From NCBI GenBank assembly GCA_030704615.1, contig CM060731.1:60388001-60452000 (forward strand): DNA of 64,000 nt. Reading direction: 5' to 3'. This document shows positions 1 to 61,651 of this stretch, piece by piece; positions within the stretch are counted from its first letter, which is position 1, and each line of letters begins with the position of its first letter. The notes below the pieces were generated by a model, which did not search any database, had not been told where the DNA came from, and saw only the letters and a list, made by a program, of their open reading frames with translations. Both the position numbers and the translations under genes were made by a program. The stretch is from Takakia lepidozioides (Eukaryota; Plantae; Bryophyta).

Positions 1-272
1 AAGTCAGGTGTCAAGTTTAGTTTGACACCTGAACCGTCTTATCTTCATGAGAGCGGCAGTCGCGCAGCTCATCTCTCTCAAGTTGAGCCTGCGCGACCGA
101 GCTCCTTCATGCGTTTAGATCTGAGTGTGCTTATGATGGGAGTGTAGGTTGTTGTGGGGTGGAGTCCCCTTAGCTTGGGGTGCCCCTGGCTTGACTTCTA
201 TTTTTAAAGAGTGATAGCGATGGATTTCATATTTCTTGTGTTGAGAGTGTGTGTCCTTTAGCTTTTCTTATC
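1..272 (+). repeat. 5' LTR (visible part)
   Basis: Ungapped match to 12915-13186 with 7 mismatches in 272 bp (6 transitions). Confidence 0.95.
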
Positions 273-287
273 ACTCGAGAGAGATGA
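273..287 (+). promoter_or_regulatory. Self-priming primer-binding site (Tf1-type)
   Basis: ACTCGAGAGAGATGA directly after the LTR is the exact reverse complement of LTR-internal TCATCTCTCTCGAGT (12983-12997; 69-83 with 1 mismatch). Confidence 0.8.
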
Positions 288-473
288 CCTGTATCTAGTT
301 TTCTAGTGCTAAGCTAGATGCGACGTTTTTGTTTTTAAGCACTATTATAATATAGCTTGGTCACGAGAGCCTGCAGGTAGACTGGCTATGTGTGCCTAGT
401 GGAGCATAACAGGAAGACGGGAAACACTTGAAGTGTCGCTGCAGCAGTTCAAAGCTAACAATATTCTTGTCTT

Positions 474-692
474 CCTGGCAGGCACTGCAGCAGGCTATCT
501 GCCTTGTCCTGAAAGCGTGGGGGGCATGTCCTCATCAACAGTTGCAGCATAGGAATGGCTTCTGCCGCTGCCATGGCTTGTGCTTTTCCCACCTCGGCAG
601 GACTGGAGGACCAGGCTTGACGTAGTAGGAACAAAGCCTCAAGTGCTGCTTCCTGTGCTCCTTCATTGCCAGCCTTTAGTGCACCCACCAGC
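474..692 (-). pseudogene. CSI1: Captured fragment of CELLULOSE SYNTHASE INTERACTIVE-like ARM/C2 gene
   Basis: [60 protein letters not shown] matches the pre-C2 region of plant CSI1/POM2. Confidence 0.8.
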
Positions 693-871
693 TGCGCGGA
701 GCTGCTCTAGTTACGCACAAACCTGTTCGGCATCTTTGATTTTGGACATGTCTGTATATTGCTCATTGTGTGGCTTCAGATTGAGTCCACCGTGACTTGC
801 AAGCACTCTCCCATGAATGAGCCTGTCCAAGCTTTTATGCACTTGGAGTTTCTCGCATGAATGTGTCAATG

Positions 872-1220
872 TGCAGCGGCGGTGAGAGAGGAAGGCACGA
901 GCCATGCCGGCAGGTCATGGATTGCGATCGCGCACCAGGGATCCGTTCTCGCGGCCATTCAGGCAGAAGGGGTACATTCACTTGACCACGTATCTGAGAA
1001 ACTACAGGATTGGAGATTATGTGGACATCAAGGTGAATGGCGCTGTGCACAAGGGCATGCCCCACAAGTTCTACCATGGCCGCACTGGTATCGTCTGGAA
1101 TGTCACCAAGCGGGCTGTTGGTGTAGTTGTTAACAAGCAGGTTGGTCCCAGGATCATTCGGAAGCGCATCCATGTGCGCGTCGAGCATGTCCAGCCGTCG
1201 TCCCGCTGCCGTGAAGGAGT
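872..1220 (+). pseudogene. RPL21: 3'-truncated intronless copy of 60S ribosomal protein L21 with 5' leader
   Basis: [19 protein letters not shown]...[12 protein letters not shown]...[14 protein letters not shown]; similarity lost after about 1215. Confidence 0.92.
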
Positions 1221-1399
1221 TTGTCCGCGCCACAACAGTGGCGCTTACTGCCGGTATTGTAGGTTTGTTTTGTTCCTCCTAAGTAGGGCATGAAAACACC
1301 GTGTTCTAAGGTTTCTCCTAGTGCATTGAAGCTACTCGGTAGGGTTGGCTTGTTCTGAGGAGGCTGGCCATTTTGGTTTTCGCTATCGCATATTCTCCG

Positions 1400-1467
1400 G
1401 ATTCTTGGGGAATATGTGAAATATGCCTCTATGCTCGCATAAGCCTGCTCACACGCTACCCAACCTC
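1400..1467 (+). mobile_element. Isolated right terminus of the MULE-like family seen at 44.3-45.8 kb
   Basis: GGGGAATATG...TGCTCACACGCTACCCAACCTC matches the ends at 45030-45082 and 45719-45777. Confidence 0.65.
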
Positions 1468-2185
1468 GAAAAAAAGGTGTAGATCCGCCCAATAGTGGTT
1501 CAAAGCCTGGTGCATGTCCGGCTCTCACATGTGCATCCCCCCAACACTGGTATCGACGGCATACATGGCACAATGGATATAATCAATATCGGATATATAA
1601 TGTATATAATGGATATAGATATCACAATCTGAATGTACATAGTTGGTTTTTTCGATACTAGACCAATATGGATAATGCCCCCGTATCAGCTTTTCATGCT
1701 ATTGGTACCACTAACACCACACCAATGATGTATTATTGATACCACCGTGGTATTCAAATATCAGATTTTTTCCATTATCAGTGCTTCCCTGCAAATTGCA
1801 ATCGCAGTATGATATGTTCAAAATACGATACTAATCCAACAGTGGTTGAAACCATGTGGTGGATGTCATAAAGGGTTCCCTTCCCACCGGAAGGTGGTAG
1901 CATGGAGTCATTTATTTATTACTATGATTTCCCTTGGGACCCAAGACTGACCTTTTCTTGTCTTGATCCATTTATTAAATACAATTAAATAATATAAACC
2001 TATATGTGATGCCTTGTGCGTTCAATTTGAGTAATAGGTAGGTAGAATAAATATGTCAAAATTTTAAAAAAATGGTGGGAAATTTTTTGGTCAATAGCAA
2101 TGTGGGAAGCCCTAAAATAGACTATAATAGAACAGCTAAGTTAAAACCAGCTATGCAACCATTACTGAGGGGGGAAAAAAAACTG

Positions 2186-2735
2186 GGGTAGCCTGTGCCG
2201 TTGGCCCTAGTGTCCAGTGTCATCTACGCGCAAATGTAAGATTTCTATGTATCCCAGTGTGTCTTCTATGTCGAGGCCCAAGTTCGACCTCTAGGATAGC
2301 CTGTGCCGTTGGCCCAAGTGTCCACTGTCATCTACGTGCAAGTGTAAGATCTTCTATGTATCCCAATGCGTCTCCTATGTCGAGGCCCAAGTTCGACCTC
2401 TAGGGTAGCCTGTACATTTGGCCCATGTGTGAAGAATTGACCAAGTGCAATTTCCTACGTATCCAAGTGCATCTCCTATGTCGAGGCCGAAGTGCAACCT
2501 CTAGTGTAGCCTATGCCGTTGGCCCATGTGTGAAGAATTGAATTATAAGACCAAGTGCAATTTCATATGTATCCAAGTGCATAACCTATGTCGAGGCCCA
2601 TCTAAGCCCAAGTGCAATCTTCTATTCATGTATCCAAGTGCATCTCCTATGTAGAGGCCCAAGTGTCCAATATCATCTAAGCCCAAGTGCAATTTCCTAT
2701 GTGTCCAAGTACGTCTCCCATGTCAAAGCCCAATT
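2186..2735. repeat. Degenerate tandem array of about 100-110 bp units
   Basis: Recurring TAGCCTGTGCCGTTGGCCC and CTATGTCGAGGCCCAAGT at about 2189, 2297, 2406 and 2507, decaying to shorter CTATGT/CCAAGTG subunits. Confidence 0.85.
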
Positions 2736-3889
2736 TATTTTTTTCCATGAATTTATTGAGTAGTAATATATCAATCACGATTAATATATCTCCCGTCGAG
2801 GCTCCAATCATTGTCCCAAGAAAGCCCACTTTGCTATTTTTTTAAGAATTTCCAGCGACAAAAAGTATTTGAAATTCCATATCTCTCACATCGCAAATCC
2901 AAAAATTATGAGACAAAGTCGGTGCACCCCTCCTCATTGAGGGCTGCTGAGCCGCATTTTGTTGGTTTTCTGAGACCACTCCAAGCTCGCAGCTTATAGA
3001 TATAAGTAGCACGCCTTCTGCTCCATGGGTAGATCTATGGTCGCCTGAAGTGTTTCAACATTCTACTGCCTATGGGATTGTAGGCAGAAATCCAAAAACC
3101 GAAAACAAAGACGAGGAGAAGCTCTGGATTCATGATGCAACTGGCAGGTGGATGTCACTGCTGCGTTGAGGGTTGCAAAAGGGTGTGCACCTTCATTGTA
3201 GATAAACGAGGCGCTTTGGACCCTTTAACGAGGCTTGGAGTTGGACGTTTTGAAGCTGGTTCCATGTCCAGCGCATGCTGTTGGAGCACCTGGTAGCCCA
3301 TCCACAATTGCAGTGGGGGCTGAGAGCTGGTGCCTTCGAGGATTCGGTGGTTCGGAGTACGAGCTGCCTTCGTTGCTGTTGATGGTGCTGGAGAATCGCT
3401 TGAGACAAGGGCCTGCGGGTACAAGCCCTGCTGGTGTGAGAGCTGCTGCAGGCAGTAGAGTCGGGCAGTAGAGTCGGCTGTTGGTGAGACGAGATAGAAG
3501 CACTTTGGGTCTTCAATCCTGAGTGCCTCAGTATTTGAGCGTTGTCGGCACCAGCTTGATTTTGCATAGACCTGGAGGGGAACGGCCTCGGGAACCCGTA
3601 GATAACCAGGGAACAGGGAACCAAGACAAGTATTGAAAAAGAAAAAGAAAAATGAGTTTTCTTTGTATTTGTTTTGTCTTATTTTTATTTTTTTTTAAAG
3701 GAAAAGAAAAGAAAAATGTGTTATGTTTAAAGAGCCTGGTTGGTCATATCTTTGTCAAATGAGCTCCGTTTGACTCAGTTTTTGGGGGGATAGCTGTAGA
3801 AAGGGGATATCTACCTATTTAGACCTGGTTTTTGTTTTTGGGACTCTGCTAAAAATCTATGGAATTTTTAGAGTGTGAGTGTGCCATGA

Positions 3890-4675
3890 AAGATCCACAA
3901 TCCTGTTTCTAGAACCTGTGTTGGTCTATATGAGAGACAAATCTGTGGATGTACTCCTTGTATGGCTGGGGGAAATGAGGACGTAATTGAAGGGCAGGTC
4001 TCTTCTCTTAGCCTGTGCACACAAGAGGACAGGATTTATGTTTCCCAAGGAACTTAGACTGATTTGAGTGGAGAACAGTTGGACGAGTTGATTGCATACT
4101 GGGAGTCAGGCATTAGCAGTGGACAACAAACTGCTGTAGTTGGCGTTGAGGGCCTCAATATTGCTTTGGACAGCCAGAACTCTGTTGGAGCCAGCAGTTC
4201 TGCAGCTGTAGGTGAAATACCAAAGTGGGTGAAAGCTAGGTTTGGAACACAGCCAAAGACAGCCCCGGGGACCAAGGTGTTCAGCCACAAGGCCGTGGTG
4301 TACTGAGCTACACAAGTTTGTGCAATCAGACAGCGTTGCAGCCGGACACGCTCTGCACAAGGCAACCACGAGCGGGGGTTCATTAGCGAGGACAAGTTTG
4401 TTCTGTTTGAAGGAGATGCAATCATTCGCAATGAGGACACCCGCAGCCGTCTCAAAGCTTTTGAGTTGAGAGACTATCAGACCCTACCTTTGTTTTCTTT
4501 AGTGTTTAGTGAGCGGGAGATAGGGGAGTATTGCTTTGTCTCTACTTGGCAGAAAGAGGAGGAGGGTTGGTTAGAGCGAGCTACTGTAGCTTGGGACAAG
4601 GTTAGTGGCAGGTTTCTGGACATAGATATACCTTCTACACCTTACCATCATGCAGAGCGAGGCACTTTGAGATAA
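3890..4675 (+). pseudogene. Decayed extra ORF (ORF0) upstream of gag, unknown function
   Basis: 262 codons in one frame with only two internal stops (TAG 4055, TGA 4304); C-terminus aligns with ORF 23832-24878. Confidence 0.65.
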
Positions 4676-5216
4676 GTCTGGCAGTTGATAGCATAGATCA
4701 GGATTAGATCTTGCTTGGTCGGGCTTCTATTCTTCCCCTCCATCTCTGTACTATTTTCATTACCTTGTACTTGTAGTTGCCAAAGCCTCTCTTGGTGGAG
4801 GCCAGTCAGTCCGGGGTTTTGGGCTGGGATATTCTGCAGGATCAGCATTGCAGCTGGATTTTGGTGTGGAGGTGTTGATGTTTTGATTTCTTGTGTTTGG
4901 ATCCCCCCCAACACCTGCATGCTTGACTGTGCGCCATGTTGGTTTTGTGTGGGCGCTTGCTTTCATAGGGATTAGGCCGGATTTGATCACCGGTCAATCC
5001 TAGAGTATGCTGTCGGTGGTGAGGCTGGAGTGATGACCAGCAAGACCACTAGTGTTTCTTCTATGGTGAGGCTGGGTTGATGACCAGCCAACCATAGGAG
5101 TTCTTGCGGTGGATGCAGGTGCAGGTGCCCTGAGCCATTGGAATATGACCCTTAAACTGCAACAGGTGCCTACCTGTGTCACTATTAGAATTAGTAATAG
5201 AGCCTTATAGTGTCAC

Positions 5217-6737
5217 GTGGGGGAGGTGCACATTGTGAGTGTCATCACGGAGTTACTCAGAAGTTCTGAGGGGAGTACAGCTACAGGCAGTAGCAGTGAG
5301 AGTGGGTTCACCAGACGAGGTGTTCGTTTCAGACCACCTTCACCTCCACCCTCAACTAGTGCAGAGTCAGACACAGACTCGGAGGCTTCATCAACAGGTG
5401 TACAGTTGCATTCGCCATTGTTGTGGGACGACATGGAGGAGATGTATGGAGCTACCAAGGGGCCTCGTAGGTACTCTGGAGCTGTGGGCACAATCGAGTT
5501 GGATGACTTTATCCAAGAGTGCGACAGCTGGTGTGATTTGCAGCAGATGCGCAATCCACAGCTATTCACCCCATTCATGGCGTGGAAGGGACTGTTCCAG
5601 CATTTGGAAGGCCCGCCTATAGACGATTACCACGAGTTCAGGCGAGGACATGAAGTAGAGATTGAGGAGTGGAGGATGTATTGGTCACCTGACTACGTCT
5701 CCATTACTCGAGGCACGACGCGACCAGTAGCTACATCAGTACCAATATCTCCCACTGCCAGCACTAGTAGTGGAACAAGTAGTGCCGGTACTTCTGCAGG
5801 TGGTACCAGTTCAAAAGGTGCTACTACTCCTCCTGCCACGACTACAACACATGTGCCTAGATTCAACCCGGTGGTGGAGTTCTTCCAGGAGTTGCGGAGG
5901 AACTACCAAGGTGTACGGACAGAGAAGCTGCGAAGTTTGCAAGACTTCCAGCGCAAACCCAGTGAGAGCCTGCGAGAGGCGTACACTCGTATGAGGCGCT
6001 TGATAAGTGTGACCCAAGGGGTTACTGAAGCTCAGGCAATCCAGTTTTGGTATGGAGTTTTGGACAAGGAGCTCAAGAGAAGGGTGCGAGATGCAACCCT
6101 GTTACAAGCAGCCCAACCCACATTAGCAGATGTGTTTCTGCTGGCTGAGCGGATTGAGCTCAACATGGTGGAGGAGCGAGTTGTTACCATTGGATTTGGC
6201 AAGGACATGCCTGCACGAGGCGCAGCTGCCAGCCCACAAGCACAAGGTACTACCCAGCCCAAGTTCCATGGAGCTTACAGTGGACCTCAGGTGCAGAGGC
6301 CCGTGGCATCTTTTGCAGGCCAACAGCAACCAGGGGTGATATGTTGGACATGTGGAGGACCCCATGTCAAAAGAGATTGCCCAGAGAGTGGCAAAAGGCC
6401 GGCACAAGTACAGCCTGCACAGTTGCAGTGTGGGCATTGTGGCAAGTATGGGCATGGAGATGCCCAGTGTTATGACTTGCATCCTGAGTTGCGCCCAGGC
6501 CAGTTCCAAGGGAACAATGGTGGCCGGGGGCAAGGTGGACCAGCCCAGAGAGGACGAGGTGGTCGGGCACGAGGTGCAGGCCAAGGGCAAGCTCAACATG
6601 GCCAAGGACGCGGAGGTCAGGGTGTTGACCAAGGCATGGCCAACCGGCTTCAGCAACTAGAGCAGAGGCTCGCTGCCATTTGCTACAGCTCAGGCGGTAC
6701 CGGCTCCCAGGTGGGATGGTCCACCTCCTGCTCCTGA
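5217..6737 (+). CDS. gag: Gag with two zinc knuckles
   Basis: Capsid-like QRKPSESLREAYTR, CWTCGGPHVKRDC, CGHCGKYGHGDAQC, RGG/Q-rich tail. Confidence 0.9.
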   Translation: MGEVHIVSVITELLRSSEGSTATGSSSESGFTRRGVRFRPPSPPPSTSAESDTDSEASSTGVQLHSPLLWDDMEEMYGATKGPRRYSGAVGTIELDDFIQECDSWCDLQQMRNPQLFTPFMAWKGLFQHLEGPPIDDYHEFRRGHEVEIEEWRMYWSPDYVSITRGTTRPVATSVPISPTASTSSGTSSAGTSAGGTSSKGATTPPATTTTHVPRFNPVVEFFQELRRNYQGVRTEKLRSLQDFQRKPSESLREAYTRMRRLISVTQGVTEAQAIQFWYGVLDKELKRRVRDATLLQAAQPTLADVFLLAERIELNMVEERVVTIGFGKDMPARGAAASPQAQGTTQPKFHGAYSGPQVQRPVASFAGQQQPGVICWTCGGPHVKRDCPESGKRPAQVQPAQLQCGHCGKYGHGDAQCYDLHPELRPGQFQGNNGGRGQGGPAQRGRGGRARGAGQGQAQHGQGRGGQGVDQGMANRLQQLEQRLAAICYSSGGTGSQVGWSTSCS

Positions 6738-8110
6738 GGGAGGAGAGGCATGGGATTTATATGCGGAGCAGCACTACCACTAGAGCGGGTGGAGTCTGCT
6801 GCAGCCGTGACTCGAGGAGCAGCACGAGTTCCTGAGCCACGAGGTGCAGAGGTGGAGTTGGATCCACAACGTGGGGAGGCAAGCCGTCAGGCGAGGCTTC
6901 CTCAGTCATTCACATTGGCAGAGACAGTGTCGACGCCATCCATGGCACCTAGTTCTCGCCCGACTGTTACCGAGGCGGAGGTTACTATGCCATTGGGGAG
7001 AGCTACACGTGCAGCACTGACACCTGCTGCCAAGGTCAGTGCAGCCGGTGTGTTGTTGGGGGCAGCCACCTCTGTGTGTCAAGCCCCACTGTTCTCGGCA
7101 ACCATGATTGCGACGCCGGGGGTAAGACCAGCTGCAGTGTTCAGACTAGCAGCAACACTCTGTGAGAGTGGGGAGGTCACTTCATCTTCTGCGGAGTTAG
7201 TGGAAGGTATAGTGGCAGAGGGATCCTCGGATTTGAGGGTCAAGACTGCCACGGCTGCGCCATGGCAAGCTGCAGTTGCCAGGTTGACGGAGCTGCCAGC
7301 TAGGCCAGCCTTTGAGCGCGCCATGGTGACACCTGGAGTTGTCTTGTTAGACAACCAGGGAGGCATTTTCACTTTGAGTGGAACGGCAGGCAAGAAGTAC
7401 CGGCCACTGCGGGTCTTGTTGGACTCGGGAGCTCAGCCACTGATGTTGGGCAGAGCTGCTATTGCAGGTTTGGGCCTCATGGAGGCTTTCAGATACAGAC
7501 ATCTCTGGGAGGATCAGAGCAGGCTCGGGGCATGACACGGCATCAGTTGGCCATTAGACTGCAGCCGGATCATCCTAGAGATGGCTCAGTGATGCGAGCC
7601 AAGGCCATTGTGACAGACGCGGTCTCTTACGATGTCCTCGTTGGTGGGGCAGTGTTATATCCCATGGGCTTCCCTGGACTTTTGGGAGGAGTCAGCATCC
7701 TACAGGCCTGGATGGCAGTCAGGCGATGGTCGCCGTGCACAGCTCCCTGTGACATTCATTGGGGGTATAGCGGCTGCCCAGCGGGGCAAGATGCCAACAC
7801 TAGCCGCCTTTACAGCTGCAGTTAGTTGGCCTGGAGAGTTGCTGGAGGGCAATGCCCATGCAAAGGATGTGCCACCTCCAGCAGAGCAGGATGACATGCA
7901 TGGTATGGCGGAGTTGCCTGCCATGGTTGCTCACACTCCATTGTGGGTACGAGCAAGGATTTGCAGCAGACTGCTGATGGACGGGTGCAACAAGCTTGGG
8001 TAGAAGCTTTCGTACCGTCAGGAGAGGAGGAGAGTGCGGTGATTGCACCAGGACCACCCCAGTTGTCGCCATTGGACACCACACCTCTTGTGTGGCAGTG
8101 CCCGGATGAA

Positions 8111-9060
8111 GGCATATGCCTTCTGGACTTGTTTGGCGGGATCAGCACTGGATTGGCTGCAGTGCTGCAGGCAGGTGTACGAGTTCGACGTTACCTGTAT
8201 GTGGAGAGGGATGAGACTGCACGACGCGTCTCACTGCGCCATGTTGCTCAGTTGGTACAGCAATACCCTGACTTGTTGCCAGTGTCTGCAGTTCGTGGAT
8301 ACCAACAAGCCTTGCCAGCAGACATTTCTTGCTGGGGGCGCAGGATTTGGAGCAGGTTGGCTCCATTGATCTGGTAGTGGCAGGTTGGCCCTGCCAAGGG
8401 CATTCATCAGCCGGGCATGGCAATGGATTGCGAGACTCGAGGACGGGTCTGTTTTGGGAGATGGTGCGGATTTTGCGCTACTTGCAGCTTCATCAAGCTG
8501 TAGCTCCAGCATACATCTTGGAGAATGTGCCACTGATGGGTGATTCTCGGGCCAGGGTGATGGCCAGTGTGCATCAAGTCCGGTCGTGGCATGGGTCAGC
8601 AGTGTTGCTGGATGCAGCTGTAGTGGGGTCACGGGCTCATCGTCCACGGCTTTGGTGGACTAACTTGATGCCACCTGCACTACTCAAGCGTGCATTTGAT
8701 GGGGTGCAGCGGCCAGCACACCTCACCGTGGATGACATTTTGGACACAGGGAGGCAGTCTCAACGTGTGAGACACGATGACCGTTCGCCTTTGGCAGTGG
8801 TCAACAGGGTGGGTCAACCACGAGCAGCATTACCTACACTGCTCAGCTTCCCAGGATCCCATGCTTTTCGGGATGGTGGACCTGGCCTCCTGTGGGATGC
8901 TCAGTTGCAGCAGTTAGTGGAGCCTAATGCCAACGAGCGAGAGCGGGCTATGGGGTTTTCCACTGGGACCACGGCGGTGCTTTCTCTTTCTGAGGCATCA
9001 CGACGTCAGGTGTTGGGGCAAGCAATGGATCTCAATTGCTTGACCTGGATTATCAGCTTG
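8111..9060 (+). other. DNMT3-type C5 cytosine methyltransferase domain inside pol
   Basis: Motif I LDLFGGISTG, IV AGWPCQG, VI ILENV, VIII AHRPRLWWTNL, IX ERERAMGF, X RRQVLGQAM; 1-bp frameshift at about 8329. Confidence 0.93.
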
Positions 9061-12000
9061 GCTATGGCTGAGCAACGTAGAGTGCGGAGTGCACTCCCCT
9101 TCATGGTCTCTCTGCCTACCGAGATGGTACAGGCAGCGAGTGGGGGCGAGCCGGTGAGGACCACGGGGTGTAGACATCCATGGCACACGTGGGAGGTGCT
9201 CGAGGTTCAGAGGGAGTTGGCAGCCAAGGCAGCTGTGATGGATGAGGTTGGGGATTCTTCTCGGGATGAGGAGGTTCTCAATGATGAGATGATGGGGCAG
9301 GATGAGGCCTTGTCATTGACTGAGCAGGAAGGGAGTACTGCTCAAGAGGTTGCAGCATAGCAACCACGGGACGCGTCCTCTACCTCTAAGCCCACTGGAC
9401 TTAAGGTTGCAGTTACGGAGGACAATTGGGAGCCTGACATTGGACCCATTGTCACCGGAGGAGAGAGACGATGTATACGGCGGTTCCTGAGGGCTTACAT
9501 GAATTGCTTTGCCTTCAGTTTGAAGGACTTGGGAGCACTGAAGGGTCAAGAGATCCGTATTGAGTTGGCCACTGACACGCCAATCTTTCGGAGACCCTAT
9601 AGATACAGTGACATAGAGAGGTCTTTGATTCAGATGAGGACTCAAGATCTCTGGGAGGCAGGTTTGGTGGAGCTCTCTGGTGGAGAGTATGCTTCAGCCA
9701 CAGTGATGCCAGCCAAGAAGGATGTCTATGGCAATTGGACGGAGAGACGTATGTGCGGTGATTACCGGCCTGTAAATCGTCAGACCAAGTCCGATAGGTA
9801 TGCCATGCCGACACCAGAGGAGATCTTTGATGCCATTGGGCATTCCAAGGTCTTTAGCACGTTGGATTTACGATCCGGATATCACCAGTTGCCGATCAAG
9901 GAGGCGGATAAGCAAAAGACGACATTCTGGGGGATCAATGAGCACGGGAAGGATTGCCTATACCAGTGGCGGTTCTTACCATTTGGGCTTAAAAACGCTC
10001 CCGCTGAGTTTCAAAGAGTCATGGACAGGATTCTAGCAGGGGTGGAGTTTGCTCGGTGCTACATAGATGACATCATCATCTTTAGTGCTACGGTGGAGGA
10101 GCATGAGAGACACCTTCAGGGGGTATTTGAGCGCTTGAGGGCGCACGGATTGAAGTTACATCCGGGAAAGTGCAAGTTTTTCCACAACCAGATTGAGTAT
10201 CTGGGTCACATGATATATCCTGGAGGATTAGGGGTACAATAGACTAAGGTAGAGTCCATTGCACAGGTTCCACGCCCCACGGATGTGAGCCGAGTTTGAG
10301 CTTTCATGGGGTTAGCAAACTATTACAGACGGTTTGTTAAGGGATTTAGTGCCATTGCAAAGGCTCTAACCAAGCTGACCAAGGTGGACTAGGAGTGGCA
10401 GTGGGAAGATGAGTAAGAACAAGCTTTTCAAGAGCTCAAGGCGAGGTTGACCTCGGCGCCCATCTTGAGACGACCTATCAGGGGGCGTCCTTTTCAGCTG
10501 CATACAGATTGGAGCATGCTGGGGCTTGGAGCGGTGCTCACACAGGTGGATGATGAGGGAAGAGAGTTCGTAGTGGCTTATGCTAGCTGCTCGAACAATG
10601 CTGTAGAGTCTAAGTATAGCTCATATGAGGGAGAATGATTAGGTGCAGTGTGGGCCGTGGCACACTTCAGGTGCTATCTATACGGCAATCTCTTCACCCT
10701 TGTCACGGATCACCAACCAGTCAAGTGGTTGATGGAGTCAGACAAGCTTACGGGGAAGCTTGCACGGTGGGCACTCATCCTTCAAGAGTATGACTTTCAG
10801 GTGGTGCATCGACCGGGTTTGGTCAATCGCAATGCAGATGGGTTGAGTCGCAATCCATGCACGAGCCAGCAGGATGACACTGGAGCTCGGTGGCATGGTG
10901 AGATGGACGAGGAGATGGTGCCCGGATGGCATGCATCTGCATTTCTGTGTATCTTGGCAGCGGAAGGCCAGGTTGGACCTGCAACAGGGATGACTGTAGA
11001 TCAAGTGTCTGAGGACCCTGAGGCCAGCAATGAGCAAGGTGGCGCCAAAGATATACATGAGGATTCAGTTGTGTTGGACTACCTCCGCACTGGAGACACT
11101 GCAGCCACTATGACTGCCAAGGAGAGGGATCGGATCCTACAACGAGCCAAGAGGTTTAGGTGGGAGGGGACACATCTGCTCCGAGTGTGGGAGGATGGTC
11201 GAGTGAGGATTGTGCCTCACCCAACACAGCGGGCACGGTTAGTGCGGCATGCCCATGAGGAGTTGGGGCATTTTGGGGTGCGACGCACTCATAGTCTACT
11301 GCAGGGGCAGTATTGGTGGCGTGGTATGCACACAGAGGTGCAACAATTTGTGGCTAGGTGCATGGTGTGTGACAAGGTGCGTGCTTCATTCAACGCCCCT
11401 ACTCCACAATTGCACCCTCTTCCGATCATGGGATTGGGCTACAGGTGGAGTCTTGACTTCGCAGGGCCGTTGCCACTGACCATGCGCCACAACAAGTACG
11501 TGTTGCTGATGGTGGAGCACTTCTCCAAGTGGATTGAATTGGTTCCATTGCCTGATAAGGCTAGTGAGGGAGCTGCGTATGCATTCTTGGATTGTGTGCT
11601 TAGCCGATTCGGTGCTCCAGCTGAGGTACTCACGGACCAAGGGAGAGAGTTCTTGGGGGAGTTTCAGGCTTTGTGTGACAAGGCCTTCATAGACCACCGC
11701 ACCACTTCTCGGGATCATCCTGAGACCGATGGCTTGGCAGAGAGAGTTGTTCAGACAGTAAAGAGGGGTTTGCGCAAGTATGGCTTGCAGAAGGGACACC
11801 TAGGAGATTGGGACCTTCAGTTATCCTGGTTAGCCATGGGCTACAGGTTCAGCAAGCAAGCATCACTTGTCTCCTTCTCACCATACTTTCTTCTCTTTGG
11901 CCGAGAGCCGGATTTGCCTACATCCATTCGCAGAGAAGCTGCTATAGTTCTTAACCTTGACGATCCGGACGTGTGGGCACGTGCATGTGAGCAGCGTGCA

Positions 12001-12351
12001 GAGTTGTTCAAGAGAGTCATGCCCATGGCTTTCGAGAACCTTGCCATTGCACAACACCGTGATACGTTGAGGTATGCTACCATACGTGGTGAGGGCTATC
12101 GTCCTAGGGTTCAGAGATTCAACCCTGGTGACTATGTCTATCTGTAGCAGACTGCTCCTACGACCCTGGATGTGACTACAGGACGTGTTATTTTGAGGGT
12201 TCGAGAGGTCTTGCCCTCAGGCGTCTTGGTCTCGGAGGGTCGGGATGGCATAACTTGGAAGGACCATGTGCGTAATTGTGCGCCATGTCACCTTCCGAAT
12301 GTCGATGGCAGGATTGACCAAAACCTGGCAGTGGTATCTGCAGGTTTGAGG

Positions 12352-12486
12352 TGCATGTTGTGTGGGTCTGCTAAAGGGGCAGCCACCATGCTGGTGTGTG
12401 ATCGATGCTCTAGAGGTTGGCATATGGGATGCTTGACTCCACCTCTTGAGATGGTTCCGGATGGGGATTGGTTATGTCCACATTGC
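12352..12486 (+). other. PHD finger at the integrase C-terminus
   Basis: C4HC3 pattern CMLC...VCDRCSRGWHMGCLTPPLEMVPDGDWLCPHC. Confidence 0.9.
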
Positions 12487-12740
12487 ATTGGATAGTGGGA
12501 GTGGATACAACCATGGAAGGCTAACAAGAAACGCAAATGAGACCTTGAACACACGAGGTCCTGGCTCAAGTTCACAGATTGCAAGACGGCGACTAACGAT
12601 GGGGCTACTCTTGTACCCGGCCTCTTGGTCTATAGAGTTTGAGTGCAATAGGGGCAGTGATAGAGGACTTAGTACGGCTGTGGCTATTACATCTTGTAGC
12701 TATCTGGAGGTAGAGGGACCTACCCACCAGCTAGGGGGGC

Positions 12741-13274
12741 GATTGTGGCAGACTACTTTATTGTGCATATATGTGTGGTGTGGTTTGGACAGCGATGTAG
12801 TTGTGTAGCGATACGTATGCGCACAACAGCTGTCAAGTTAAATAAGCACAGTGTGAAAACGACTAGAATAAAGCTAGTTATTTGTACTTAACACTTGGAT
12901 TTAGGTCAAGTGTTAAGTCAGGTGTCAAGTTTAGTTTGACACTTGAACCGTCTTATCTTCACGAGAGCGGCAGTCGCGCAGCTCATCTCTCTCGAGTTGA
13001 GCCTACGCGACCGAACTCCTTCATGCGTTTAGATCTGAGTGTGCTTATGATGGGAGTGTAGGTTGTTGTGGGGTGGAGTCCCCATAGCTTGGGGTGCCCC
13101 TGGCTCGACTTCTATTTTTAAAGAGTGATAGCGATGGATTTCATATTTCTTGTGTTGAGAGTGTGTGTCCTTTAGCTTTTCTTATCGATTGTGGCAGACT
13201 ACTTTATTGTGCATATATGTGTGGTGTGGTTTGGACAGCGATGTAGTTGTGTAGCGATACGTATGTGCACGACA
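12741..13274 (+). repeat. 3' LTR (12741-13186) followed by a repeat of its first 88 bp (13187-13274)
   Basis: Follows PPT AGGGGGG; 13187-13274 = 12741-12828, with homology ending exactly at CA. Confidence 0.9.
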
Positions 13275-13905
13275 ACAACAATTGAGGAAATCTACCTCCC
13301 CAAAAATTCACATACAAAACACCCCCACAAGTTTCTAGGTCTTTCACTCTGAAATTTTCAGAGAACGCCTTCTATGTGCCTCTAATTGTGAATCTGGAGG
13401 CCATTCGGCCAAGAGAAATATGGATATTGGAAAACTCCATGGTCAAACCATTTTTTATCATATAATTTTCATTTGGGTTCCAATTTGTATCATTTCTTTT
13501 GTTATGATCTCCCATTTGCAATGTTCAAACCTGCCCAAATTTTGTGATGGTGTTCATGTCGTCAGTAGCGATGAGGTTGTAAGTTCATCCAAGTGGGTGG
13601 ATGGGGGTAGGAAGATATAGCTAGTTCAGTCAAGTTATATACCGTTTTTGTGCAAAAGTGGAAAAAGTTAGCTCGTCCTTTAAGGGTTAATGCGTACTGC
13701 CATTTCTGATTTCCCCCGTTTTAGTTCTACATATGGCTTGCACCGGTGATCACCACCTCATGTAGATGAGTATTTTTCTACCCGATCTTGAGCTCTCCGA
13801 TCTCAAGAGCTCTAGTTGTCATTATAAGTACTAGTCCAAAAAATTCTTGTTCATCTACCTTGTGCGTGAAATCACAATTGTATGATTTTTGATAGCAAAT
13901 CAAAG

Positions 13906-14519
13906 ATGGGCCAAGCTTATCATCATGTAGGGTTGCAGCTCATCCTAATAATTGCAATGACATTCTTCACCCTTCTAGCGCTTGTAACATGCTACGGGAG
14001 TTATTTGCATGTCGGAGAAATCCTCCATCCAAGAGACTACATACCCGTGAATCCGGGTTTCAGCATAATCAATACTCAGCTTGGATGGGTACAAACTATC
14101 AATTTCATTTCATTAATGAGATGAACTTTGTGTGGTCAAGTACTCAAACGAACCTGAACAAGTGTTATGTGACCCTCCAATCTGATGGAAATTTGGTGAT
14201 CTACCATGAATACACACCGGTGTGGGCTACAAGTACTAATAATGTATATCCATGCAACGATTATGGAGGATATTACGAATTGCAATTTTGGGGACAAACA
14301 GGAACAATCCTTGCTCTGGTTTGCCACTTTCCAGGTTTATTTGGAATTCCATTTTTCGATTCATATGTAGTCTATGGGCTACTAACCAGGTCGCCAACTA
14401 GTTTAAAAGCCTTCCCAATTGATATAAGCATCTTTGGATTACTGGTACACATCATAAACTTCTACACTCACCATCTGATGGAGGAGCTTTGTTGGTTATT
14501 CAAATTACTCGACGGCTGA
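13906..14519 (+). pseudogene. Secreted bulb-type (GNA/B-) lectin-like gene, frameshifted
   Basis: Hydrophobic N-terminus in one frame; VWSS...LQSDGNLVIY...VWAT (QxDxNxVxY) in the next frame; shift near 14090-14100. Confidence 0.7.
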
Positions 14520-16429: not shown

Positions 16430-17952
16430 GCTCATATGCTTTCATACCTCTGACAAGTGACATTATCTTTATGTCTCCCACTCCTGCCACCCAGATTAGG
16501 CAATCGTTGGCCACTCTTACTCCCCATTGCCCTAGCTGTATTTTCCTCATTGTATGAAACCAATGTTTCTTATCAATCATATGCTGAGTAGCTACAGTGT
16601 CTGCATACCATGCTTCCTCATTGTTGATATAAGCATATGAGACTTCACTGATAATTCTTTCATTCTCAATTGTCTTGCCATGAGATTCTTGACGATCTCA
16701 TCTATAGTTACAAAGGGATCGCCCTCAACTATATGTGCCGGACTCTTTCCACTCCGGTTATCTTCTGATTTCTTGGGATATGGACACTCCCTTGACCAAT
16801 GTCCAAGCCTACCACAGTTATGACAAGAAGTTCTCTTCTTGAGATCAAGAAATCTTTGAGCTCTCTCTGCTCTTTGTTCTGCTGACAATTCTCTTTTCTG
16901 ACCAGCTACCCCCACTTGTTCATCCTGCAAAAGAACGCTTTATCTCCTTCAACATCAGTCAACCTGCTCTTTAGTTTCATTGATGACTCTCGCTTTAAGA
17001 GCCTTGCCTGAAAAGCCTTGAAGGTTTGCTCTGCTTGGGGTACAATATCCCACGCTAGTAAGAAAGGCTCATAACTTGGAGGGAGGCCTACCTTAATTTT
17101 CATCATCAATTGTCTCTCACTTACTACTTCACCAAGATCGCACAACTGACGTCTAAGAGCAGATATAGTACTCACAAACGTAATAATAGAATCGCTCTCT
17201 TTCATTTAGCATCTAAAAAATTTCTCATGCAGATGAGTTATATTCTCTTCTGCTGACTGCTCATGCACACTCTTGAGCATGTTCCACATTTCTGCTGACG
17301 TGGTGCAATTCAACAAATTGCTCCATGTGATGTTTGTCTACTGCACTCAATAACAACATCACCACTCAGCAATCTTTGCTATGCCAGGCTTCTTGATCTG
17401 CAGCGTCACTCATTGTTTCCTTGCCATTCACAATATTCCACAACCCCTTACCCTTGAGTATAAATCCCATCTGAAATTTCCATAAATGGAAACTCTCTCC
17501 CGTGAACTTTTCTATCCCTAGCGTCTCTCAATCTCGGTTCTCACTAGTACTCATCTTTGCTAGACTTTAATAACGCAACACTAAAGCTGTGTGTGGGCCC
17601 ATAACCTATTGAAGATCTAAAACTGGGAGATAGTGAAAAGTGCACGATCACATCGTGACAGGTTCAAAAGACTCAATGAAGGAGATCGATAGCAAACACA
17701 ATACAGTGTATGTCACACACATACTGTCAAAGAGAAGAAGAAACACGGCCTGTCATCTGCATCTAAATACAGGCAGAGAGCGGGAGATCTAACCAACTAC
17801 AAATTCAAAATGCTATTGCTTAGAGACTGCTACCTGTGTGACAGTTCGATGGATTGCACTGTCACCTGTCACTACTAGGTCTCTACTTCGTGTCACTACT
17901 TGGTGGACTGCCACCTGTGACTATGACTAATCTACAGTAATCTATTTCAACA
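16430..17952 (-). mobile_element. Ty1/Copia 5' fragment (LTR, PBS, gag, start of protease)
   Basis: LTR 17607-17952 with TGTTGAA/TTCAATA ends; PBS GGTTATGGGCCC 17595-17606; gag ATG 17554, GLPPSYEPF, CHNCGRLGHWSREC; many stops. Confidence 0.88.
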
Positions 17953-18789
17953 GCCTATGGAGCCCGGACTGGAACAGCGAACCAGCCCAACAAAGAAGAA
18001 CGTAACCGCTAAACCTTCAGAGCTGGTCTTTACGGACACCTGCAAGTGACAAGAACTTGGGCAAGCTGGTGGTTTCATGAAGCTAGGGATTTTGTGAAGG
18101 AGGGGCGACAGTGCGCGACAAGGGAAGAGTGGTTGTAGCGCGGGCTTATGGAGCAGGCCTGAATTGAGGAGAATGCACAGATGATTTGAAGAGAAGGCCT
18201 GAGATCTGAACAGGATGTGTGATATGTGCAGAGAGGAGATGAGAATATATATAGCATGGTGTGGCGGTTGGGTGGACCGGAAGAGTAATCTGGTACTGTG
18301 CTGTCAGGAATAGATAAGGTAGAGATGAGCGGTGGGTTTTCTTGCTGACTGAAATCAGAACATGATGCCTTCTCTACCTAGAGTGTACAAGTTGTGAATA
18401 GAGTTCCAGTAAGGCAGGTTCATACTGGGTTTGAACTGACCTGGATCCCTGTGATAGTGAGCAGAGGAGTGTCTTACACTGGCGTTGATTTTCCCTGTTG
18501 AATGTAATCAAGTGAACGCTCCTTCCTTTGAGCTTTTGGAATGATATCAACTGTATGTGACTTCATGATATAAAACTGAGAACTGGTTGGATAGAACTGG
18601 TGCTATTGTTGAGAACTGGACAGAACATGTAGAAGTGCTACAGTTGAAATAAAGACAGAGCTGTGATATATGGTGTGGTTGTTGTAGTCAATTGCTTCAT
18701 TTAGGATGCTAGACTGTTATTTTGGTGCAGCTTGTTGCTGAGTCAAGGTCTTTTTTTGAGGTGAAACTTCTTAGTAGATCATGCCATCT

Positions 18790-20830
18790 GACAAGTTGTT
18801 GGGTTAACCACTCAATTTTTTCGTTGTGATTTCCCGTCAAGAGCAAGTCATCCACGTATATAATTAGACTAGTCAGCCTATCTCCTTCTCACATTTAGTA
18901 GAGATTATGGTATGCATTACTTCTCTTGAGGCCTTGCTCCCTCATAAATTTATCTATTTCTTCATACCACGCTCTCGGTGCTTGTTTCAGTCCATATAGG
19001 GCTTTAGCAAGCTTGCAGACCTTCCCTTCTTGCCCACGAACCTCAAAGCCTTGGGCTGCAACATGTAGACCTCCTCCTTGAGGCTTCCATTGAGAAAAGC
19101 CGTCTTGACATCAAGGTGCGACAATTTCCAATTATTTTTCGCGGCAAGAGCAATCAATGTCCTTAGTGTGCCCCATTTCACCACTGGGGCAAACGTCTCT
19201 TCATAATCAATTCCCTCCCGTTGCTCATAGCCGCAAGCAACAAGTCTGGCCTTATGCTGGAGATGACCTCCATCTGCACCTTTTTTCTCCTTAAACACTC
19301 ACTTGGAAGAAATTGGACGTTTTCCTGGAGGCAAATCAACAAGCTCCCACGTACTGTTTTCTTGTATAGAGTCCATCTCCTCTTACATGGTTTTTCTCCA
19401 AATTGAATGGAGCACTGCCTGCTCAAAAGAGGTAGGTTCATTTGCATTTTCCAACACAACAACGTAATCCTCTAGTCTTCGTGGTATTCTTTGTTCCCGC
19501 ACATGCAACATTCGAATTTGAGGAGCAAGTGGAGCAGGTGGCTGATCAAGCAAGATAGCTTCACTAGCTTCACTTGACGTGTTTCCAAAAAGAGACGTCT
19601 CGGAGAGTGTATAAGGTGACTTGGAATCAGTTGAGAAGTCTGGCAAGAAGGTACTTGACGTCTCTGACGAGGATTGCAAAGAATCATGAGATTGAGAGGG
19701 TGCAGGAATAGCTGGTAGATTAGGAGGAGCACTGGGTCTTTGATCAACTTCTTGGAATATGAGGGCGGTTGTGTCATGATTGCATGATGCTCTTTTGGTT
19801 AGGTGCAAAGCTAGCTTGAGACTCGTCGAACTTAACATCCCTCGATACAAGTATACGTCTAGATTGAGGATGATAGCACGGAAAACCTTTAGACTCCTGA
19901 TCGTATCCTATGAAGTCACGAATGTCACAACTGGGTGACTTGGAGCTATATCTACGCATAGAATTCAAGTACTTCTCGAATGGGGTTTTTCTGACGCAGA
20001 GAGGGTATATCCAAGCCATGCTCAAGGAGCTAGGTCTTAGTGAATGCAACACAAGCCCAACTCCCATGGTTGAGAACTTGAAGTTAATTGCTGACATGGG
20101 AGAGGAGCGAGCAGATGAGCTTTTGTATCAAAAAATGGTCGGAAAGTTGATCTATTTAACAAATACATGGCCAGACATTTGTTACGCTGTAGGGGGTGGT
20201 AAGTAGATTTATGTCAGCACCTCAAAAGTCTCACATGGAGGCAGTCAAAAGGATATTCCGCTACCTAAAGGGAACTATGGATTTTGGATTGATGTTTTAT
20301 GCGGAAGGAGGAACATGTTTGGACGGGTTTGTGGACGCAGATTGGGCAGGTGATCGAGAAACAAGACAATCCACCTCTGGTTTTGTGTTCCGACTTGGGG
20401 AATCACCTGTAACATGGTCGAACAAGAGACAACCATCAGTATCTTTGTCCTCAACTGAAGCGGAGTATCGAGCCATAACTGAAGGTACCAAAGAATCGAT
20501 GTGGTTGCAGACTCTTACTCAGGAACTTGGCTTCCTCATTGGTAAGGCAACTCAACTTTCGTGTGATAATTCCATTGCTATCAAAATGGAGAACAACCTA
20601 GTGTTTCACGTGCGTACTAAGCACATAGAGGTGCATTACCACTTCGTTAGAGAGAAAATACTAAAAAGAGAAGTAAACTTAGACCATGTTGCATGAGAGA
20701 GTCAACTTGCTGACATATTCACAAAACCATTAGGGAAACAAAAGTTTGTCCATTTCAGAGATGCTCTAGGATTAGTCAGCCTACAACAAGTAATCAACCA
20801 ACAAAAGACTTGCTCTACTCGTGACTGCTA
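18790..20830. mobile_element. Ty1/Copia pol fragment with an inverted 5' part
   Basis: Minus strand 19915-18790: FIGYDQ, KARLVA, ETFAPV, LDVKTAFL, YVDDLL. Plus strand 19915-20830: MSQLGDL, DADWAGD, SSTEAEY, TKHIEV. Confidence 0.9.
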
Positions 20831-24878: not shown

Positions 24879-25108
24879 AGTAAGGATGATCATGGTATCG
24901 CGGGCTGCTGTAGCGGATTGCTACCCATCCCTGCTCGCCGACTTTGGCTTAATTAGAACTCTTGTTGGTATTCGTTGCTTCCAGGTTATCTCTCTACTAT
25001 TCCTATATCTTGACACAGTTTAATCAGAACAAAATATTTTCTTGTTCGTGTTTGGACTCGTTGCTTCCTGTTGTATGGTAAGAAACATTGTTAATACTTG
25101 GCTTTGGT

Positions 25109-26908
25109 CTAGGAGGCAACGTGTTGCAATGGATGCTCCCGATCTGGCCACAACGGAATTAGCCCCTGTCGAGGTCAGAGAGCCGGGTCTTCCATCACCT
25201 ATAGGTAAATTGAGTGACAATCCGCGAATGCAACTTGGGATGGTAAGTTTAGATGAGGGATCACCTCTACCAGAGGCCAGTCTCTATACTGATTTATCTT
25301 GTGAAGATGGTATTGTTTCCCAAGAATTAGATGATGTTCAGGTGACGCCCGCTGGTCTCACAAAGATAGTGCAATTTGAAGTTCCAGGGGTCACTATGTT
25401 GCCTGGCAATGGGCCTGTGGTGCCAAGTGTAGCTGGTACTGGTAATTTTGTCACTAACGAGGGCCTGTCCGCAGCTGCTGATCAGCTAGCCTCTACTCGA
25501 CATATGGCCATGATGCCTGGCCTGTCTCATGTTACAGGAGCCAGTCCTTTGGGTGGTATTTCCAGGCATGCCATCCATCCCCCTTCTTTAGACCCAATTG
25601 CTAGTAGTGTATGCAATGCAAATGTGCAAGTCCCAGTAGGAAGGGCTAATGTGAGCGGTATGCCAGCCCCATCAAATGCTCGTGTCAACGTAGGAACTGC
25701 TGCTGGTTTGCCTATTTCTATGATGCATGTTCCTAATCCCGCTCTTGAGGGAGGAATTGGTGTGTCTGTGACTTTAGTGTAGCGGTCATTCAACCCAGCA
25801 ATTGGGAAGGCCACCCATTCCCACCATGAGTGGAGTGGCTCCAAACCAAGCAGCCATGGTCGGTCCAGCTGTTCAGTCAAGGCCTGTGTTTCATGCACCC
25901 CAAGTGGGCGTGACAACATTACCGCCTAGCTTGCCATCTTTGTCATTTCAAGGTCCCTCTAATGTCATGAGTAACAACTATGTCCCGGTTACTAGTGGGG
26001 TCCATGCTATGAATACAACCACCAATCAGACTCAGGCTATGGCTCATTGTTGCCCGGCCCATGGATCTGCTAAGCCTGGTCACATGAATCATAGTCTGCC
26101 CTGTCATTTGCTTCCTCAGCTCACTACGCAACCCTATCCAAAATACACAATGGGAGAAGACTTTGATAGATATCTCCAGATGTTTGAAGTGATTGCTAAT
26201 GTGAATGGTGTGCTTGAGAATTTTAAAATGGCAATTTTTAGAATGAGCATGAAGGGACCAGCCCGTGACTTGTTGCATGCAGCTGTCATGGATGACCCCC
26301 ATCTCACTTGGGCATCCCTTGTGGAATGGGCTAAAACCGTATTCAAACCACCTGAAAGACCCTTGGACTGCTTCACCAAATTGAGCTCCAGGACTTACCA
26401 GCCAGGAGAGTCCTTGTGGAAGTATTACATGGATCTAAAATTTGCTGCTGCAGAAAATATCATTGATCTAGCATTATGTGATTGTATGGTGAAGACCTAC
26501 TTTCTCCTTGGCTTGCCCCATGGTATTCAAAATTGGGCCCAACGTCGTCATTTTATCAATGACAAAACTATGCTAGCTGAAATTAATCTTAAGATGGCAG
26601 ACTTAGCTGACAACAAATCTGGTAAGGCTCAGCTCACCCAAGCCCGTAATTTTAACAAGCGTGTCCAGTATTCTAACCTTTTCCAGGTGGGACAGACCAT
26701 GTGCATTCGGCTGCAGCATGGTAAGCATGCATGCAAATCTAAGCTTAAGATCGACGGTCCATACTTGATCTATGAGCTTTTACGTGGGCGACGTGCTCTC
26801 CTTCTTCCACAAGGGTTTAATGTCCACACGCATGATGAACCTGTTTCTCTCACGGATCTGGTGCATTCCGAGCTGGTCTTTGATCTTACATGCATCAATG
26901 TGGAGTGA
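25109..26908 (+). pseudogene. gag: Gag-like ORF fused to an integrase C-terminal GPY/F remnant (stop and frameshift near 25780)
   Basis: YTMGEDFDRYLQMFE...KGPAR...QPGESLWKYY...FLLGL, then FNKR...FQVGQ...DGPYLI; no PR, RT, RH or IN core. Confidence 0.7.
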
Positions 26909-29072: not shown

Positions 29073-29806
29073 TTGTAATATATCATGTACTACGCACCGG
29101 TCACATCAAACAGATCGGCTCAAATGTCTGCAACATAGATGAAATCAATCTATTTAGTCTACAAGTTAGAACCCATTAGAACACCTGGAAAAAAACAACA
29201 ACAACAACAACATAAGAGAATTCATGTAATTGATACGGCACAAAACCTATTATGGTTGGCAAGCAGAAATAAAAATACTCCATAAACCATAATAATGCAA
29301 TGCTTCACCATGCCTCATACTACACCTTTTGATGTGATATCTTTGCAAAGCAGCCATACTTGCCATTCAGCTCAGTATAGTGTTTTTCATTTCTGCTAAG
29401 AGTCTCCTGCCAGAAGTCATGCCAAAAAATGGGACAACACGACCTCTTACACATGAAATGAACCCTCCCCAGTTCCATAACACTTCCATAGCTGTGTGCA
29501 TTGAATGTCCTACCATGTCCTACAACTCTTCCGGGGGGATGTCACCACGCACTTTTCTCTCTCGAACCAGTGTTACTAATACCCTGAACTTCATTAAATC
29601 CAAATAACCAATAAAAGGACGACAGGATTTCTGACCAAATGAAGTGTCTTTAAAGGATCAAGATTGATTTAGCATAAGATGGTGCCAATGTAAGCTGGCG
29701 GCGTCCAAGATAGATTTGGTTCAGAAATTATTGATCCTGGCTAACGATAGCTGTTAGTGGCGCGGAATCCATGTATGAACCAGACACAGCCCAACCAGAC
29801 TCACAG

Positions 29807-43000: not shown

Positions 43001-43219
43001 CAAACCCACCAACGCCGCCGTGAGGGCAAGAAGATGCAATCTTACCCAAGTCAAGATGAGAGGCCTAAGACCCAACAAACTCATATAGATGAGTTCGTGA
43101 TGTGTATGAAATGCAAGAATCAGAGACGCTTCCCACGTCGCAATCCAGAGGAGCGTCGTCTCTACCACGCTGCCACTCTTGACCCCAAATGGGAGTGTGT
43201 CCATTGTCACTTTTCCTGA
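40054..43219 (+). CDS. ULTRAPETALA-like protein (SAND + Cys motif) with a long N-terminal extension; multi-exon
   Basis: EFECGVTSRVGETSGVLRVYESGVFQVFCQC, intron 42732-42863, MTPWAFEKHGGRGASKKWKESIW, HIDEFVMCMKCKNQRRF...WEC; linkage of 40054-41157 to this gene is uncertain. Confidence 0.7.
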
Positions 43220-53312: not shown

Positions 53313-53478
53313 CGCTACTCTCCACACGCTCTCCCACAACAACCGAACATTTAGGGTTTCGTTTCTCCTGTTATTATTACCCCCCATTGTTTTGCCCCCA
53401 CCTTCCTTTATTTTTTTATTTTTATTTTTATTTTTATTTTGGAAAACAAAGGCAAGTCTGAGCTATGGTTTTTTTAAA

Positions 53479-60992: not shown

Positions 60993-61609
60993 TGAATGTC
61001 GTCAACGCCATTCAGACATTCCATTCAATGACACTGTAAATACAATCCTAATCACTGTAAATACCCTAACCAGGTGAATGCAAATAATCGTTTAGAAATG
61101 ACACAGACATAGAAGTGAAATGTCGTCAACGACATTCAAGAATGAAGCCAATTATTACTTAAATGAAGCAAAATCACAGGATGGAAATCAAAAATTGAGT
61201 AAGGAACCCTCCAGGCAAACTCAATGCACATTCATAACGAACCTATCACTGAGGACCTCACAACATCACTGTATGTGAATGGCGTCAACGCCATTCACAA
61301 AAATACAAAAAAGAAACCAATTACTTAGCTCCCCAATCCATGTAAATTGAATTTGTCGCTGTTTGAATAATACAACACAGCTGTGAGTCGTCAACGACAT
61401 TCACTTTGGATTTCCTTAAACAGAGCTTATGAAGCCTCCACATTCATCGCAAGAAGCAAAAACAATGCAGAACAACTGAATGTCTGCATTGACATTCAGC
61501 AAAATGAAGTGAGGAACCCTCACTGTAACCTCTATGGACATTACAAAAATTTAAATAACTCTGAGGACCTCTCAACAACTCCGTATGTGAATGTCGTCAA
61601 CGCCATTCA
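60993..61609. repeat. Dispersed array of a 22-bp palindrome
   Basis: TGAATG(G/T)CGT-CA-ACG(C/A)CATTCA at 60993, 61116, 61276, 61384 and 61588; variant at 61477. Confidence 0.85.
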
Positions 61610-61651
61610 AGGACATTATCAATTCTAATCAGGGACAATATAATTTCCGTA

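Follow-up and report, generated by a model that had tools for sequence, protein, structure and literature searches.

A decayed Gypsy retrotransposon of the moss Takakia lepidozioides with a DNMT3-like methyltransferase domain ahead of a conserved stop codon

What does a cytosine methyltransferase do inside a retrotransposon, and is it a working part of the element? A 64,000-nucleotide stretch of the genome of the moss Takakia lepidozioides (GenBank assembly GCA_030704615.1, contig CM060731.1, positions 60,388,001 to 60,452,000, forward strand), hereafter the window, raises this question. It contains a Ty3/Gypsy element with a DNA methyltransferase (DNMT) domain between protease and reverse transcriptase (RT), and a single TAG separates the DNMT from the RT. 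We consider it reasonably probable that the element is a decayed member of an ancient green-plant Gypsy lineage, in which the first open reading frame (ORF1) codes for Gag, protease and a DNMT3-type enzyme, the RT part is made by readthrough, and the DNMT is packed at Gag-like numbers and methylates the new cDNA. The features of the element are listed in Table 1.

Table 1. Features of the methyltransferase-bearing element, in window coordinates.
Feature	Position	Strand	Basis or remark
Repeat A, 3' part of left copy (begins upstream of the window)	1..273	+	97% identical to 12915-13186
Predicted self-priming primer-binding site	274..287	+	complement of a stretch inside repeat A
Gag, two zinc-knuckle-like motifs (6342, 6429)	5433..7400	+	Pfam Retrotrans_gag E 0.0016; tblastn to Marchantia ORF1 P0123
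Aspartic protease (LLDSGA, 7416)	7416..7760	+	frameshifts near 7490 and 7670
DNMT3-like C5 cytosine methyltransferase domain	8090..9069	+	one frameshift near 8328
Stop and CAR-YYA hexamer (TAG CAA CCA), end of ORF1, likely readthrough site	9358..9366	+	recurrence in relatives
Reverse transcriptase (YIDD 10060) and RNase H	9526..10860	+	Pfam RVT_1, RT_RNaseH; five stops
Integrase (H2C2 and rve core)	11200..12340	+	Pfam; one stop, 12145
C-terminal PHD finger	12352..12495	+	Pfam PHD E 2e-11
Polypurine-tract-like motif AGCTAGGGGGG	12729..12739	+	kept at the same place in relatives
Repeat B, first copy, ends ACA	12740..12828	+	repeat comparison
B-GC-A junction (ACA GC TGTC), attachment (att)-like, near-palindromic	12823..12836	.	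comparison with relatives
Repeat A, complete internal copy (TG...)	12831..13186	+	repeat comparison
Repeat B, second copy, ending GACA, at the element's right end	13186..13274	+	contig depth drops to background beyond

The domains follow the Ty3/Gypsy order Gag-protease-RT-RNase H-integrase. Motif and Pfam positions bear out an earlier sequence-only reading of the window, which had placed the DNMT inside a Gypsy polyprotein between protease and RT; the Klebsormidium relative P0351 has a Pfam Asp_protease_2 match ahead of its DNMT. As that reading had also noted, the frame from 8329 is common to RT, RNase H, integrase and PHD, and the TAG at 9358 is the sole stop from DNMT to RT. The main C5-methyltransferase motifs that it had listed (I-X) are present in non-permuted order, including the catalytic PC and ENV, and RxR is found too. 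Their positions are LLDLFGG (8120-8140), YVERD (8198-8212), AGWPCQ (8380-8397), ILENV (8515-8529), AHRPRLWWTNL (8635-8667), ERERAMGF (8935-8958) and RRQVLGQAM (9001-9027). Motif I lies in a different frame from the rest, with the break near 8328, and Pfam DNA_methylase matches 8272-9357 (E 1.1e-12). In near-full aligned DNMT domains the catalytic Cys is retained in 183 of 185 and the ENV Glu in all 185; the two R-x-R arginines are kept in 180 and 179.

The proposed DNMT3 type held both by sequence and by fold. We used P0001, an intact relative (73% identical), for the main fold and, together with a profile of 11 relatives, as query against PDB sequences. DNMT3A, 3B and 3C came first and DRM, DNMT2 and bacterial enzymes ranked behind them (E 3e-19 for DNMT3A/B versus 9e-11 for a DRM). 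The P0001 model (predicted local distance difference test, pLDDT, 92) matched DNMT3B best (Z 28.9, root-mean-square deviation 2.6, 278 aligned), followed by DNMT3A (Z 27.8) and the CpG enzyme M.MpeI (Z 25.9). The fold of the window's own C-terminal DNMT piece was mediocre (pLDDT 66). Sequence ranking and modelled fold both place the methyltransferase nearer DNMT3 than DRM, DNMT1, DNMT2 or bacterial enzymes.

The window copy itself is dead and cannot code, because it has frameshifts near 6680-6746 (a local pair in gag), 7490, 7670, 7944 and 8328, and six stops from RT to PHD beyond the TAG at 9358 (10240, 10297, 10390, 10414, 10636 and 12145). The breaks near 7944, 8328 and 10636 are absent from contigs of sibling copies. 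Contigs of four public runs align to the element in large numbers (90,488 in run X1), so the family is a high-copy one.

The TAG at 9358 behaves differently from these lesions. Into this comparison went the window and the best 80 of 302 metagenome loci; 59 of these reached from the DNMT end to the RT start, and 51 were left after collapse at 98.5% identity. In 38 of the 51 distinct loci, from 7 of 9 families, a stop in the RT frame immediately precedes [CT]A[AG]YY and lies 50-57 codons ahead of RT. Eight of these 38, from six families, carry the strict CARYYA (CAACCA, CAACTA, CAGTTA or CAATCA), 28 carry CAACCC (the Sphagnum-type family, 84-88% identical to a Sphagnum protein), and two look decayed. 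Among 601 decay stops inside domains, taken as a control, the strict hexamer never occurred and the loose pattern occurred nine times. No variant of at least 8% was present at 9356-9366 in the sibling contigs of any of the four runs. A random lesion was therefore rejected for TAG 9358, which recurs at the same place in those 38 loci. Protein ends tell a similar story: many relatives stop 72-130 residues past the DNMT core, five Marchantia ORF1s (1278-1281 aa) terminate at the same point as the window ORF1, and many Gag-less RT-RNase H-integrase-PHD proteins begin about 30-120 residues ahead of RT. The stop-bearing families form one clade in both the DNMT and the RT tree (FastTree, SH-like support).

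Readthrough at such a site has precedents. The retrotransposons SIRE1 and RIRE2 use readthrough of the tobacco mosaic virus (TMV) type. UAG CAR YYA is the TMV-type (type I) context, in which TMV reached 32% readthrough in the assay of PMC2754532. The context at 9358-9366 is exactly the same, although in TMV it controls the viral replicase whereas in the window it follows protease and DNMT (PMC2754532). We conclude from the comparison of loci that TAG 9358 is a conserved stop, probably of programmed readthrough; ORF1 would likely be Gag-protease-DNMT and RT-RNase H-integrase-PHD the readthrough product. One point of the sequence-only reading is corrected here: the conserved stop places the DNMT in the Gag-protease ORF and not in a broken single Pol. 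With the stop after the DNMT, the enzyme would be made at the Gag level, several-fold or more above RT.

In the scheme that we favor, the conserved stop would be read through at a few to tens of percent, and the DNMT would be freed by the protease inside the particle. The enzyme likely methylates the element's cDNA: it would act on the double-stranded form, probably at CG, before or at integration. The methylated new copy would then resemble host DNA or arrive pre-silenced, and the PHD may steer the integrase to chromatin with unmodified H3K4.

Selection and co-inheritance indicate whether the domain belongs to the element. Between families, the dN/dS ratio (omega) of the DNMT comes to 0.09-0.16 where dS is not saturated (pN is 0.19-0.21 where it is), and within the L039/L041 family to 0.13. 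DNMT and RT distances are correlated (Mantel rho 0.52, 0 of 999 permutations, 36 elements of which 14 were sampled from the algal layout); kinship alone yields such a signal, and the result therefore shows co-inheritance only. The domain is present in sibling copies and contig depth is continuous across it, which does not support a secondary insertion. Such an insertion was rejected because liverwort, moss and algal relatives all have the DNMT at one place, and on low omega between families and congruent trees. Of the expectation that the domain does not evolve neutrally, the part on purifying selection between families stood, but singleton changes in the Sphagnum-type family are near-neutral. 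Taken together, these sequence comparisons indicate that the DNMT is an integral, selected part of the element family.

Several results weigh against the favored scheme. In 28 of 32 Sphagnum-type copies the stop is followed by CAA CCC, not the strict CARYYA, and then by ATG. Families 7 (0 of 10) and 6 (0 of 1) are without the stop; in family 7 and several algal-type proteins one uninterrupted frame runs from DNMT into RT, and high DNMT dosage is therefore not required lineage-wide. In the decayed Sphagnum-type family, pairwise omega of the DNMT is 0.61-0.74 (RT 0.39-0.54, integrase 0.59-0.74), and nonsynonymous-to-synonymous ratios are 1.06 for DNMT versus 0.57 for RT in singletons and 0.51 versus 0.35 in shared variants. 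DNMT omega is also 0.49 for the pair L006/L050 and 0.64 for L045/L077. Yeast carrying the Klebsormidium enzyme showed no methylation, but a DNMT3B control was inactive too and the authors called the test inconclusive (PMC5890265). CpG depletion of the element (0.50) is no stronger than in the neighboring DNA (0.46 and 0.53), and CpG and CHG observed/expected ratios fail to separate the two.

The best placed of the alternatives, though in our judgment an unlikely one, is that the substrate of the DNMT is nuclear host chromatin, at the target site or at copies already present, and not particle cDNA; the DNMT would then be an abundant enzyme for self-silencing or for marking insertion sites. De Mendoza et al. 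raise both options (PMC5890265). The integrase bears a PHD whose PDB matches are CHD4, PHF12, KDM5A/B, ATXR5 and PHF21A, and which is closest to the CHD4, KDM5 PHD1 and PHF21A types; PHDs of these types bind unmodified H3. In chlorophyte-type relatives, moreover, the DNMT sits between RNase H and integrase, adjoining the integration machinery. In the window clade, however, the DNMT is on the Gag ORF and not with the integrase, and a Gag fusion points to the particle.

Less probable again is a different origin of ORF2, by reinitiation or splicing with the stop context kept for another reason, or a DNMT retained for binding nucleic acids or for action on RNA. Reinitiation could use the in-frame ATG two codons past the stop in the Sphagnum-type family, with its imperfect hexamer. 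The window and families 1, 3, 4 and 9 have no such ATG and their hexamer varies within CAR-YYA only; the stop is always in the RT frame. The inactivity of the Klebsormidium domain in yeast (PMC5890265) would suit a binding or RNA-acting module, but all catalytic residues are retained. Finally, a host DNMT3 carried as a neutrally decaying passenger or secondary insertion, to which the near-neutral Sphagnum-type singletons would lend themselves, is largely refuted and very improbable, given the position that the domain shares across liverwort, moss and algal relatives, continuous sibling depth, low between-family omega and congruent DNMT and RT trees.

How old is this association? The search gave 476 clusters (50% identity) at E <= 1e-30, of which the best 150 were examined. 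Named relatives come from Marchantia polymorpha, M. paleacea, Riccia, Calypogeia, Sphagnum, Closterium, Klebsormidium nitens and Scenedesmus, the nearest to the window element being liverwort and moss proteins; no relative was found among the viral contigs searched. Two layouts sort on the DNMT tree, one with Gag-protease-DNMT before RT and one with the DNMT between RNase H and integrase. The latter is seen in a large second clade (P0151-P0166, P0331 and others, including a Scenedesmus pol), and the DNMT has therefore moved within the lineage. The K. nitens protein KFL_013780020 (Gag-protease-DNMT) and its neighbor KFL_013780010 (RT) fall in the window's DNMT and RT clades, with SH-like support of 1.0 for RT and of 0.99 in one DNMT tree and 0.80 in another. 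The window lineage is thus most likely that of the published KnitGypsy-Dnmt3 (PMC5890265), with which we equated the two KFL proteins by organism and architecture. The idea of a land-plant element stood in that relatives occur in land plants, but not as a separate capture, since the window shares both clades with the Klebsormidium DNMT-Gypsy. A transcript protein of Coleochaete scutata (P0175) has a complete RT-RNase H-integrase-PHD ORF 66-71% identical to the window, nearer than many relatives. Open Marchantia ORF1s are annotated as hypothetical genes, e.g., Mp4g09160, Mp5g06330 and MpVg00370.

The ends of the element are unusual for a Gypsy retrotransposon. TG...CA ends with a short target duplication are found in relatives (the window element's left end lies outside the window), but in place of two identical flanking long terminal repeats (LTRs) complete relatives read A-int-B-GC-A-B (L049 and L062) or A-int-B (L056, L058 and L028), int being the internal part. 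Four of the five relatives with both ends have exact 4-bp target duplications, and L028 matches in 3 of 4 letters. The left A of the window ends TCA, followed by CTC, as in the left A of relatives, and is probably the 5' end of the window element or of a same-orientation sibling. The near-palindrome GACA-G[CT]-TGTC recurs at the B-A junction in four other families, and the outer ends of the element are the same TGTC and GACA. We rejected a DIRS identity because the element has an rve integrase instead of a tyrosine recombinase, and because of the target duplications. There is no chromodomain after the integrase as in the Chromovirus Tcn1; the C-terminus is the PHD.

If B-GC-A is the true LTR unit, running from polypurine tract to primer site, the long form would be a circularly permuted two-LTR form, as if a two-LTR circle had been opened at a single internal junction; a one-LTR circle opened in this way would give the short form. 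Circularization to one- or two-LTR circles would thus precede integration, and the integrase would open an internal CA|GC|TG site. The short form could alternatively come from later B-B recombination or from cutting both junctions of a linear cDNA, while the long form should be impossible to obtain from linear two-LTR cDNA without end joining. Foamy virus integrase cleaves two-LTR circle junctions, likewise cutting a palindromic CA..TG junction in a circle; there the enzyme cuts where the two LTRs meet, so that normal ends are restored (PMC1180852). In the window lineage the site falls within the LTR unit, and the element is permuted once integrated. Among Sphagnum-type loci with a located right end, the short form outnumbers the long one by 8 (L019, L026, L028, L029, L033, L034, L056 and L058) to 4. 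Copies of the short form have no 3' A and should therefore be dead ends.

Reverse transcription would be self-primed. The predicted primer site has a 14-15 nt perfect complement to 12983-12996 (position 152-167 of A), which 0 of 300 shuffles reach. In the Sphagnum-type family, which is unrelated in sequence here, 11 of 13 copies (some duplicates) have their best complement at 163-165, and 9 of 13 copies have at most 4 of 300 shuffles as good; family 7 shows a 14 of 15 complement in one copy scored. The primer site is thus predicted to pair with the element's own LTR in Tf1-type self-priming. Tf1/Sushi and Tcn1 Gypsy elements have such a site, complementary to the LTR and not to a tRNA (Neumann et al. 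2019, PMC6317226), but they have ordinary paired LTRs and chromodomains where the window element has permuted LTRs and a PHD.

Combining these steps gives a fuller and more tentative proposal, which we regard as possible rather than probable: a chlorophyte-to-bryophyte lineage with an active DNMT3 at Gag stoichiometry and pre-methylated cDNA, whose circle would be opened at the att site by a DDE integrase and whose PHD would pick chromatin with unmethylated H3K4. If true, it would describe a self-marking element with circle-dependent integration, with open ORF1s in Marchantia.

The DNMT-bearing Gypsy kind has been known since 2018; the readthrough stop, permuted ends and self-priming were not found in print as described here. 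KnitGypsy-Dnmt3 of K. nitens shares with the window element the Gypsy domains, a non-permuted Dnmt3, purifying selection and DIRS-like split repeats (A-coding-B-A-B), but it is described for the alga only, with the DNMT in the Pol ORF (PMC5890265). In the window subclade the DNMT is in the RT frame with the conserved stop between them, whereas in other relatives the two are fused. Land-plant members, a readthrough stop, self-priming, target duplications and an internal att junction are all absent from the available text on KnitGypsy-Dnmt3 (PMC5890265). SymbioDIRS-Dnmt3 also combines a retrotransposon Dnmt3 with split repeats and methylates CG de novo in yeast, but it is a tyrosine recombinase element and an independent capture (PMC5890265). 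EpiLTRs and DAM-LTRs likewise join DNA methyltransferases and a chromatin reader in LTR elements, but theirs are a DNMT4-like and an adenine methyltransferase with a chromodomain; the same preprint names streptophyte Gypsy-DNMT3 as a distinct acquisition (bioRxiv 10.64898/2026.05.21.726589). We found no report of a land-plant DNMT-Gypsy or its readthrough, nor of self-priming or target duplication for a DNMT-Gypsy, in a literature scope outside which lay subscription papers, Repbase, figures and bioRxiv supplements, which may matter. No permuted-LTR Gypsy was found beyond the 2018 legend (PMC5890265), and term look-ups in the available text of PMC11244446, PMC11982613, PMC10952607, PMC6317226, 10.1101/363937 and the Chlamydomonas v6 preprint returned none of these.

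With these relatives, DNMT-bearing retrotransposons are no longer a curiosity of algae but extend to land plants, among them Marchantia, a genetic model in which a transposon's use of a silencing enzyme becomes testable. The conserved stop predicts the dosage and location of the DNMT. From the permuted ends one would expect circular intermediates, and programs that look for LTR pairs would probably overlook the family. Copies of this kind could also enter counts of host DNMT3 genes by mistake.

The 5-kb stretch at 273-5210 had no tblastx match to any of the relative loci compared. Between the left repeat A and gag lies an intronless ribosomal protein L21e fragment (886-1210, + strand, Pfam E 4e-44), a retrocopy possibly carried inside the element. 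A 122-aa open stretch without a Pfam match (4307-4675, + strand), in the element's high-depth 5' region, may be a remnant upstream ORF. Just upstream of gag, window positions 5030-5130 and the leaders of L039 and L042, from distant families, show by eye similar motifs (GATGACC repeats and GCAGGTGCAGGT), a possible packaging or splice signal.

Further along the window, an ORF at 13896-14519 (+ strand) without a significant Pfam match contains a QSDGNLVIY motif, which we take to be that of bulb-type mannose-binding lectins. Additional genes and element remnants are a decayed Copia-like element (16500-20700), a second gag-like remnant (25000-26900), a PPR gene (29800-35600), a ULT1-like SAND gene (41666-43219), a DEAD-box helicase gene (48339-53462) and a possible SWIM-finger ORF (61565-62236); the Copia-like and SWIM-finger labels are presumptive, assigned from motifs.

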